Shown here: positions 1 through 52,659 of the stretch, piece by piece
Position numbering within the stretch: the stretch's first letter is position 1
Layout: every line of letters starts with the position of its first letter
Assembly (NCBI GenBank): GCA_048887225.1
Contig: JBHLJY010000011.1
Coordinates: 1-64,000, forward strand
Source: Candidatus Hodarchaeota archaeon
GTDB taxonomy: Archaea; Asgardarchaeota; Lokiarchaeia; Sigyniarchaeales; SOKP01
Direction: 5' to 3'
DNA: 64,000 nucleotides
The notes under the pieces: generated by a model
What the model saw: the letters and a program-made list of their open reading frames with translations, nothing else
Databases searched by the model: none
What the model was told of the DNA's origin: nothing
Translations under genes and position numbers: made by a program

Positions 1-395
<395 letters not shown>

Positions 396-4157: not shown

Positions 4158-4262
4158 GCTTCTGTAGTGTAGTCCGGTCAATCTTTTCTTTGAGATAAGA
4201 AAAAGGATCATGCATGCGAGGCTCTCACCCTCGCGACCCGGGTTCAAATCCCGGCAGAAGCA
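4158..4262 (+). tRNA. tRNA-Glu(CTC) with 30-nt non-canonical intron (4182-4211) in the D arm
   Basis: Acceptor GCTTCTG/CAGAAGC, anticodon arm CGAGG-CTCTCAC-CCTCG, T arm CCGGG-TTCAAAT-CCCGG; intron removal gives a normal D arm. Confidence 0.93.
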
Positions 4263-50501: not shown

Positions 50502-50960
50502 TTGATGAAAAATAATAAAAAGGATAAAATTCCTTCCGGAAAAGATGAAATTGAAGACAAAGAAGGATTAAATGTCTGTTACGATAAAAAAGAACTTAAT
50601 GAATTTTTACCTCATTTAATGACAGAAATCTCTAACAAAAAGCAATCAATGAAAATTAATTCAATTAGTAATGATAATGAGGAAAAAATCCAAAATCAAT
50701 ATGAGTGTCTTCCAAATGAGTTAATTAATCCTGGAGCAATTGATTTTATTAGAAGATGTACTAAGAATGAAGAGGCTTTCGAAATATTAGATTATTTATT
50801 GGAAAGAAATGAGTTAACTCGTGAAGAGTATAATTTATATAAAAAACAAATTATGAAGAAGGGGGGTTTAAAAACCCTTATTAAAGAGAGTGGTGGTCTA
50901 AAGCGTCCGGGATATTATTTAAATAAATATTATAAAAAAGATAGTAAAAATCAAAATTAA
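50502..50960 (+). CDS. DUF2095 family protein
   Basis: LPHLMTEI, NPGAIDFIRRC..EEA.EILDYL, KRPGYY. Confidence 0.75.
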   Translation: MMKNNKKDKIPSGKDEIEDKEGLNVCYDKKELNEFLPHLMTEISNKKQSMKINSISNDNEEKIQNQYECLPNELINPGAIDFIRRCTKNEEAFEILDYLLERNELTREEYNLYKKQIMKKGGLKTLIKESGGLKRPGYYLNKYYKKDSKNQN

Positions 50961-50987: not shown

Positions 50988-51071
50988 ATTTATATTGATG
51001 ATGAACTCTATGACAAATAGAGCTGCTCGCTCGGCAGCGAGGAACCTGTCGCCCCAATCTGAAATATAAAT
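50988..51071 (+). ncRNA. Box C/D methylation guide RNA, predicted target LSU rRNA G2251 (E. coli numbering)
   Basis: Box C ATGATGA (50998-51004), box D CTGA (51059-51062), 9-bp terminal stem ATTTATATT/AATATAAAT, guide TGTCGCCCCA complementary to P-loop UGGGGCGGCA. Confidence 0.85.
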
Positions 51072-51088: not shown

Positions 51089-51358
51089 TCACGTTTTATT
51101 TTCTATTTCTTTTTTAAAATTTAATCCTCTTTCTGTTAGAAAATATTCGTTATTATTTTTATAAATTAAATTTAAATCAAGTAATACAGGGATCCTTCCT
51201 TTAATACACGATAACGAACACCCTGTAAATAGTTTTATAATTTTAAAATTCTTTGCACCTCGATCAATTGCCAGCAGAATCTCAATTCCCATATCTCCTA
51301 ATAAATATTTCAAATCGTCTACAGATTCATTCTCAAAAAATTTATCGTCTTTAGGCAT
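51089..51358 (-). CDS. Small winged-helix protein
   Basis: IEILLAI..IKLFTG..L.DLNLI..YFLTERG. Confidence 0.65.
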   Translation of the reverse strand: MPKDDKFFENESVDDLKYLLGDMGIEILLAIDRGAKNFKIIKLFTGCSLSCIKGRIPVLLDLNLIYKNNNEYFLTERGLNFKKEIENKT

Positions 51359-51399: not shown

Positions 51400-52659
51400 T
51401 TATTTTTTTGAAGAATCTTTTTTTTCTCCCGAAGATGATAATTCTTCCAGGAACCTATTTATTTTTGCAATTCGTGTTTTTTGTGGTTCTCTATCTTTAA
51501 CATCTCTAAAGATTTCAGCCAGCCTTGGACTATATTTATTTGCAATAACTGGTTCGACCTCTTTAGGCAATAACTTTCGTAAATATTCCGGAAAAGAGGT
51601 GGTTATCTGTATATTTGTCTTTAAAACAATATATCTCTCATCCTCGAATTTCAATTCTTCAATAATATCAACCTCCTCTAAATAATCAATTATTTCAATT
51701 AAAGAATCGAGAGTTTTTTTTGAAACTATTTTTGATAACTGATCTCTACGGATCAAGCCATCTCTTAATTCTGAAAGAATATTGTATTTTTTACTATCTG
51801 AAATTATTTGAAAGAGAGTAAAAGCGTCTTCTTTAAGCTCCGCTCTGCTTTTATTTTCAAAACTACTAAAAAAATCTTGAACTTTTGGAAGTAATAAATC
51901 AATTAGTTCAGGGGTTTCATCGATGTATTCAATTACACTATCAGGAGGTATTCTCTCAGCATTTACCTCTTTTAATAAAAGCACGTACTTTTCTACTAAA
52001 CCGATTTGATTTATAAATATAAATTGTTTTTCAATTAAAGTGTCGACCATCTCATTAAAATCTATTTCTGGATAATTTTCAATAAACCATTCTTCTAAAT
52101 CTTCTAAAGTGATTGGTCCTTTTGATAATTTTTCTAGCGTCAAAAATATATGTTTTTTATTTAATAAATACGCAATTTTCTCTTCCTCCGTCCTCTCGCG
52201 AGTTTCTTCCACTGTTGCCCAATATAATTCTTTAACCAATAGCTTTATTAAAGAATCATTCTTGATAATGCTCCCTCTATCAGTTTCATCAAAATTGTTT
52301 AGGTCGTTTATATAAAAAGCCGTAAAAATTTCATCGTTTGCTTGTAATCTTTTGGAAAAATCCTTAGATAACGTTGATACAATTTGTTCCATCTCGGGGG
52401 AGCTTTGTTGATCAAATATTATCGAGATCATTAGCATTTCTTTATTACCGCGAGCCCAATCTGAGTGTATTTCGAAATAATAATTCATACTATTTAAATT
52501 TTCAAAAGAATGAGTAAAAAAACCTTCATTAAATGTCTGGTCCATTATATTTGCTATTCGAACGCTTAATTCTTCATCTAATACTCCTTCAGGATACGAA
52601 TAGAACACGAGAGGTCCTATTTTACGATGAAAATAGCTTAAAGAAACAATAGTAGTCAA
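51400..52659 (-). CDS. uDENN/longin (NPRL2-like) domain protein with probable C-terminal winged helices
   Basis: N-terminal SYFHRKIGPLVFYSYP matches the FxxxxGPxxxxxxP uDENN/longin start. Confidence 0.65.
   Translation of the reverse strand: MTTIVSLSYFHRKIGPLVFYSYPEGVLDEELSVRIANIMDQTFNEGFFTHSFENLNSMNYYFEIHSDWARGNKEMLMISIIFDQQSSPEMEQIVSTLSKDFSKRLQANDEIFTAFYINDLNNFDETDRGSIIKNDSLIKLLVKELYWATVEETRERTEEEKIAYLLNKKHIFLTLEKLSKGPITLEDLEEWFIENYPEIDFNEMVDTLIEKQFIFINQIGLVEKYVLLLKEVNAERIPPDSVIEYIDETPELIDLLLPKVQDFFSSFENKSRAELKEDAFTLFQIISDSKKYNILSELRDGLIRRDQLSKIVSKKTLDSLIEIIDYLEEVDIIEELKFEDERYIVLKTNIQITTSFPEYLRKLLPKEVEPVIANKYSPRLAEIFRDVKDREPQKTRIAKINRFLEELSSSGEKKDSSKK

Follow-up and report, generated by a model that had tools for sequence, protein, structure and literature searches.

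Positions 50988-51071 on the forward strand of the window, by which the whole stretch of 64,000 nucleotides analysed here is meant, almost certainly encode a genuine box C/D sRNA of 84 bases. At a probability of about 0.7 it is a dual-guide archaeal box C/D sRNA, the D arm of which is predicted to direct 2'-O-methylation of G2251 in the P-loop of 23S rRNA (E. coli numbering; Gm2251), while the D' arm is predicted to address helix 89 of the same rRNA. As a kind of RNA it is ordinary: guides for G2251 have already been predicted in archaea, and what the family adds is a modest architectural variation.

Locus and anatomy of the RNA

The RNA sits in a spacer of 128 nucleotides with convergent open reading frames on either side, at 50502-50960 (+) and 51089-51358 (-), and its G+C content is much above that of the surrounding DNA. 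It begins with AUUUAUAUU (50988-50996), which is a perfect nine-base-pair complement of AAUAUAAAU at the other end (51063-51071), and the terminal stem that the two strands form can be extended outwards to 50986 and 51073 to give 11 pairs, one of them a G-U. The C box AUGAUGA (50998-51004), whose columns are invariant in 14 homologues, overlaps a three-nucleotide bulge (G50997-A50998-U50999) that is followed by the sheared-pair positions G51000-A51001, and the D box CUGA (51059-51062) is likewise invariant in the alignment of 14. The initial annotation had described C and D boxes, a GAT bulge and a 9-bp terminal stem in kink-turn geometry, all of which are indeed present, the sequence having the stem, the GAU bulge and the GA/GA pairs of such a motif. 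Inside these boxes, and also on the forward strand, lie a D' guide arm of 13 nucleotides (51005-51017, with the core UGACAA at 51011-51016 and position +5 at A51013); the D' box UAGA (51018-51021), which aligns with UUGA, GUGA, CUGA and AAGA of the homologues and shares their invariant final A; a linker stem-loop between D' and C' (51022-51038) composed of GCUGC (51022-51026), the loop UCGCUCG and GCAGC (51034-51038); the degenerate C' box AGGAACC (51040-51046), with a bulge at 51039-51041 and a sheared pair G51042-A51043; and the D guide UGUCGCCCCAAU (51047-51058), in which positions +3 to +11 correspond to 51048-51056 and position +5 to C51054.

A strict genome-wide scan for a C box, a D box and a flanking stem of at least 5 bp (3.27 Mb) returned seven matches of which this locus is the only convincing one, and a relaxed scan of the genome for sibling C/D sRNAs produced 16 candidates that are mostly AT-rich and none of which is persuasive. 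No Rfam family reaches its gathering threshold with the RNA. The scores below threshold are 15-17 bits (best 16.7 versus 45, with thresholds of 40-45) and all belong to unrelated snoRNA families.

The upstream reading frame (50502-50960, +) is a DUF2095 gene (Pfam DUF2095, E 8e-11), and the sRNA starts 28 nucleotides past its stop codon in the same orientation, so that co-transcription is possible and the sRNA, the expression of which we infer, may be cut from the DUF2095 transcript. In relatives the DUF2095 gene is almost always directly upstream as well, its conserved end preceding the sRNA. A promoter of its own at a fixed distance from the sRNA was considered and rejected, as the upstream region holds no conserved element and the block that is conserved there is the end of the DUF2095 gene. 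On the opposite side of the locus, the frame at 51089-51358 (-) encodes an 89-aa winged-helix protein and adjoins the gene of a 419-aa protein (51400-52659, -) which has no clear Pfam family and which, across Promethearchaeota, is a conserved and syntenic neighbour of the sRNA. All relatives of this 419-aa gene derive from MAGs that carry the name Promethearchaeota, Promethearchaeia or another Asgard label, and the earlier assignment of the DNA to an Asgard archaeon therefore holds.

Conservation and covariation

BLAST detected homologues in 14 relatives, and these were used to build a covariance model. The covariance search of Asgard genomes, which the initial annotation had proposed, bore out a conserved family: the sRNA is present as one copy per genome in 22 of the 25 genomes of the window's family and in both genomes of the sister family (2/2), with no match outside the two families in a 151-genome sample of the phylum Promethearchaeota. 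Forty-seven syntenic copies lie beside relatives of the 419-aa gene, all of them on the opposite strand and a few hundred bases downstream. A strict pattern matches 58 of 68 genomes of the window's family and five of seven of the sister family, against 0-1 for the reversed control. In G032, a sister-family genome of about 4.4 Mb in a single contig, the copy lies at C1:622073-622125.

Both stems of the RNA are supported by compensatory changes among 43 distinct sequences. In the terminal stem nine of nine pairs show double compensatory changes, and in the internal stem GCUGC/GCAGC five of five pairs show compensatory changes with 97% of cells paired. The covariation score of the two stems was reached by none of 500 shuffles, and when the partner strand was slid by 1-3 columns the pairing dropped from 88-91% to 29-53%. 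The sister family has an equal plan with the linker stem shortened to 3 bp. It could be proposed that there is no RNA gene here at all and that the locus is a hairpin terminator or a chance motif, a reading which fits an intergenic position between convergent frames, one terminator-like match on the minus strand (51038-51022) and a fold z-score of -1.9, but which does not account for boxes and a guide that are invariant, stems that covary, a single copy per genome and synteny in two families. Its probability is negligible and it is effectively refuted by the comparative data; the locus is not a product of chance, because it is the only convincing match of the scan, lies between convergent genes and is conserved and covarying in dozens of genomes.

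The linker stem is flanked on its 5' side by NNGA (UAGA, 51018-51021) and on its 3' side by three bases followed by GA, which is the exact geometry of a kink-turn with the linker helix as its canonical stem. The register of the C' box is fixed by the invariant columns A-x-G-A and gives AGGAACC at 51040-51046 in the window, whereas the initial annotation had suggested CTGC and GCGAGGA as degenerate D' and C' boxes; both were misplaced, since the homologues assign UAGA and AGGAACC instead. In most relatives the C' box reads AUGAUGU, GAUGAUU, GAUGA or similar, and in the window's RNA the D' and C' boxes both keep GA. The spacer from C to D' is 13 nucleotides here and 12 in most relatives, and that from C' to D is 12 nucleotides. 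As read from the aligned sequences, the layout of the family is the canonical archaeal one of C, 12-13 nucleotides, D', C', 12 nucleotides and D, to which are added a terminal stem of unusual length and a helix by which the usual C'/D' K-loop is predicted to become a true kink-turn. A reading of UGACAA as a second C'-like box or as part of a nested kink-turn was also tried and is ruled out by its non-complementary flanks.

The D guide and the P-loop

Positions +3 to +11 of the D guide (A CCCC G C U G) hardly differ among 48 sequences; +1 and the positions from +13 onward are variable. The substitutions within this segment are nearly all C-to-U, three at +6 and four at +9, and as these positions are opposite G the pairing is kept as G-U. 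The target of the guide was read from relatives, namely from the 23S genes of G003 and G006, which belong to the same genus; other 23S genes used were those of G016 and G174 (another genus of the window's family) and of G028 and G032 (sister family). In the same-genus 23S, +3 to +11 complements the P-loop UGGGGCGGC over 9 bp including one G-U, and C51054 at position +5 faces the second G of the loop. Column 2520 of the Dennis et al. 2015 alignment equals E. coli G2251 and is the second G of GGGG (PMC4644070), which agrees with the initial placement of C51054 opposite G2251. The pairing itself had been proposed against the archaeal P-loop consensus with one G-U, and although this complementarity stands in the same-genus 23S, the duplex comprises 9 bp (+3 to +11) and not 10, because the P-loop of this genus is UGGGGCGGCU, with U and not A as the next base.

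Within the same-genus 23S and 16S the P-loop is the only run of at least 9 bp for the D guide, and it forms the best duplex in two lineages. A 9-bp match alone is not significant, as 18-26% of shuffled guides also find one in the combined 16S and 23S. The true target could in principle lie elsewhere, the candidates being GGGGCGAC about 490 nucleotides upstream in 23S, the SSU sequence GGGG(C/A)GACAG, or a tRNA. The duplex energies of such sites come near to that of the P-loop (-19.1 versus -19.4 kcal/mol for GGGGCGAC in the 23S of G006), the best D-guide duplex of the sister family is an SSU site, the guide variant of G006 has two other 9-bp sites, and chance matches of this length are common. 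The tRNA-Arg(GCG) gene offers a match of 7 nt, and among 18 intron-less tRNAs predicted by aragorn the D guide finds matches of only 7 nt and the D' guide none. Yet the alternative sites pair only from +4 and differ between genera, G016 having GGGGGGACGAC and the SSU of G006 a mismatch, whereas the guide is invariant and only the P-loop is constant.

A change in the guide that follows a change in the rRNA also argues for the P-loop. Helix 80 of the sister family has its closing pair inverted, C2248 becoming G and G2256 becoming C (GGCUGGGGCGGC to CGGUGGGGCGCC; L031, L032), and the guides of that family carry C in place of A at position +2, so that pairing is regained opposite the new G2248. 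That the guide tracks the helix-80 flip speaks against the other sites, and a different target for the D arm is very unlikely. The comparison of guide and rRNA sequences makes G2251 in the P-loop the probable target of the D arm, a prediction that can be made with good confidence.

The D' guide and helix 89

The core UGACAA of the D' arm is invariant in alignment A1 and in 46 of 47 true model matches and occupies positions +2 to +7 from the D' box. Only one complement of it is conserved throughout the six 23S genes examined, UUGUC(A/G)C in helix 89, and this site, GAGUUGUC(A/G)C, lies 207-211 nucleotides downstream of the P-loop. UUGUCAC corresponds to E. coli 2457-2463 on the 5' strand of the helix, which puts position +5 of the D' guide on U2460; the numbering was taken from the E. 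coli row of the Dennis alignment with A2451, Psi2457 and A2503 as anchors, together with our own counting. Among the duplexes available to the D' arm, that with helix 89 ranks first in G016 (-14.1 versus -10.6 kcal/mol), second in G006 and fifth in G028. It consists of 8-12 bp in other genera and of 6 bp, a 2x1 internal loop and 4 bp in the window. In most homologues position +8 forms an A-C mismatch, and pairing resumes beyond it in the 5' part of the arm: the window's family pairs ACUU or ACUC with GAGU, the sister family CCU with AGG. A single compensatory change is seen at +10, where U faces A in the window's family and C faces G in the sister family.

In three clades the D' core is separated from the D' box by 4-6 additional bases, which breaks the +5 register in them, and by chance a 6-mer finds a complement in a 3.5-kb rRNA about half the time. 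Taking these points together, helix 89 can be put forward as the predicted target of the D' arm at slightly better than even odds. In the window's own clade the guide activity of this arm may be reduced, owing to a one-base insertion and to self-folding.

The helix-89 sequence of the sister family is UUGUCGCAGGC (L031, L032). In L037, from G030 of genus g17 in the same family, helix 89 is GAGUCGUCUUGGG and lacks UUGUC, and the sRNA pattern has no match in either of the two g17 genomes searched, too few genomes for a conclusion.

The D' and D arms can also pair with one another: UGACA (51011-51015) is complementary to UGUCG (51047-51051) in 14 of 14 sequences, and RNAalifold predicts this pairing. 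As both segments are invariant, covariation is uninformative on this pairing. UUGUCGC, which makes up the 5' half of the D guide, is also the sequence of the helix-89 target in G016. The mutual complementarity of the arms would suit an RNP of the C/D type that mainly chaperones rRNA folding by holding strands of helix 80 and helix 89 during assembly and in which methylation plays a secondary part or none; the arms pair with sites 210 nucleotides apart in the peptidyl-transferase centre, and the D' core is kept even where the spacing of the D' box is off by 4-6 nt. Such a role is highly improbable given the exact 12-nt spacing of the D arm and its register, which places position +5 on a nucleotide methylated in Bacteria and Eukarya.

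Alternative folds and the single-guide reading

The initial annotation had interpreted the RNA as a single-guide, snoRNA-like molecule in which the usual second guide region folds into the hairpins CTCTAT/ATAGAG and CTCGCT/AGCGAG. Both hairpins exist in the window. The first, CUCUAU/AUAGAG, has a folding energy of -5.9 kcal/mol and a z-score of about -4.8 in the window's clade and is stable in a few other clades, and its overlap with the D' box would put it in competition with the C'/D' kink-turn in the window's clade. Nothing stable forms at this site in 28 of 57 distinct homologues, the sister family included, and the hairpin is for this reason ruled out as a feature of the family. The second hairpin, CUCGCU/AGCGAG (51026-51041), overlaps the linker stem and the C' bulge. 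A double change to CUUGCU/AGCAAG in G005 and G006 keeps its pairing, and it may represent a clade-specific alternative fold; the internal helix that is conserved and covaries is GCUGC/GCAGC instead.

At the level of the family the single-guide architecture fails, as it does not accommodate the C'/D' kink-turn, the covarying linker stem and the invariant D' core. A narrower form of it, confined to the window's clade, would have the D' arm locked in the CUCUAU/AUAGAG hairpin and the C' box decayed, with Gm2251 as the only product. The stability of the hairpin in this clade and its position over the D' box are in keeping with this, as are a C' box that reads AGGAACC, a D' spacer of 13 nucleotides, an interrupted duplex with helix 89 and the pairing of CUCGCU/AGCGAG that the double change in G005 and G006 preserves. 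Against it, the window's clade shares the invariance of UGACAA seen in every other clade and retains the covarying linker stem as well as the G-A and A-G positions of the C'/D' kink-turn, and the hairpin is absent from about half of the family. Loss of the second guide in the window's clade is on this evidence unlikely, and a dual-guide sRNA is the preferred reading for the window as it is for the family.

Predicted assembly of the RNP and the enzymes of the host

The assembly of L7Ae, Nop5 and fibrillarin and the N+5 rule of methylation constitute the established working of C/D RNPs. Applied to this RNA, L7Ae would bind the terminal C/D kink-turn, which is closed by the 9-bp stem, and also the internal C'/D' kink-turn closed by the 5-bp helix GCUGC/GCAGC, after which Nop5 and fibrillarin would assemble on the RNA. 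Fibrillarin would then methylate the 2'-OH of the rRNA base paired with the fifth guide base upstream of D or D'. On the D arm, paired with the P-loop of 23S helix 80, the predicted product is Gm2251; the D' arm would form a weaker duplex with the 5' strand of helix 89, which lies about 210 nucleotides downstream, and could give rise to Um at the equivalent of U2460.

The genome contains genes for fibrillarin, Nop5 and two proteins of the L7Ae family, and those of Nop5 and fibrillarin lie side by side on one strand (G000:C13:3794-5258, contig 13). An RlmB equivalog was not found in the genome, the best match reaching 47 bits against a cut-off of 160. This weak match to the RlmB model is made by the gene of a SPOUT-type methyltransferase at G000:C9:53754-54290.

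With regard to the RNA genes of the host, no 23S gene occurs in the assembly (49 contigs, 98% complete), and rRNA is also missing from the 'chromosome' record of a relative. A 16S rRNA gene at positions 1-393 (-) of the window is cut at the contig edge, its 5' 320 positions running off the contig start. The same-genus 23S genes (L033, L034) measure about 3.5 kb compared with the 2987 positions of the model, which suggests large expansion segments. Without intron settings aragorn predicts 18 tRNAs in the genome, and a further tRNA match in the window at 4158-4262 (+), with 105 nucleotides against a model of 71 positions, is probably intron-containing.

Relation to known guide RNAs and enzymes

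C/D sRNAs have been predicted to act at G2520 of the 23S P-loop, the equivalent of E. coli G2251, in three thermophilic archaea, examples being Pca sR36 and Mka sR45 (PMC4644070). The initial annotation, which attributed Gm2251 to RlmB in bacteria and to a C/D snoRNA in eukaryotes, had left out this archaeal RNA-guided route. The sRNAs of Dennis et al. 2015 and the window's RNA have the RNP class, the target nucleotide and the N+5 rule in common. The guide core of Pca sR36 is nearly identical, with GCCGUCCCAGU before CUGA where the window's RNA has GUCGCCCCAAU, and in these sRNAs the second arm is likewise aimed at 23S. They are, in contrast, about 50-65 nt long and GC-rich, have a terminal stem that is small or missing and join D' to C' by a short, unstructured linker that forms a K-loop, whereas members of the window's family have 75-90 nt, are AT-rich and possess a terminal stem of 5-11 bp and a covarying helix of 3-5 bp between D' and C'. 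Homology between the two groups is limited to the guide.

In eukaryotes the G2251-equivalent site is guided by snR67 in yeast (Gm2619) and by SNORD31/U31 in human (Gm4196), and snoRNAs commonly have internal stems between D' and C' as well as longer terminal stems. In Arabidopsis a C/D snoRNP guides Gm2620, which is again the P-loop site (PMC11542601). These snoRNAs resemble the window's RNA in being guides for fibrillarin methylation at the equivalent of G2251 in the P-loop, but homology is undetectable, the best Rfam scores being 15-17 bits against thresholds of 40-45, and unlike them the window's RNA has retained two guide arms and the 12-nt spacers of archaea. In bacteria and mitochondria Gm2251 is made by stand-alone SPOUT methyltransferases, RlmB and Pet56/MRM1 respectively, which modify the same nucleotide but are protein-only enzymes. 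Gm2251 is among the very few rRNA modifications common to Bacteria, where it is made by a protein, to mitochondria and to Eukarya, where it is guided by a snoRNA. The P-loop of H. marismortui we take to be G2284/G2285 by its own numbering. A review equates Gm1950 of this organism with Gm2251 (PMC11542601), and that equation is not relied on here.

A mesophilic, AT-rich Asgard archaeon with almost no other recognisable C/D sRNAs appears to have kept one guide, predicted to be aimed at G2251 and helix 89, and the conservation of this guide supports the view that the RNA-guided route to Gm2251 is older than eukaryotes. One could go further and regard the Loki-type family as an intermediate between compact archaeal sRNAs and eukaryotic snoRNAs, with the guided Gm2251 of eukaryotes (snR67/SNORD31) descending from Asgard guides. 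The features that would recommend this are the long terminal stem, the helix-closed C'/D' kink-turn and a D' arm that in some clades folds on itself or pairs with the D arm; such a descent is nevertheless doubtful and quite unlikely to be correct. The helix-closed C'/D' module is a small structural variation that may be of interest for studies of kink-turns and of C/D RNP assembly. In other Asgard families compact C/D-like candidates occur on a different scaffold (L144 and L145, from G291 and G309, and G091:C8:49574-49632), and the candidates of G291, G309 and G091 carry the identical P-loop guide (...CCGCCCCAGU CUGA).
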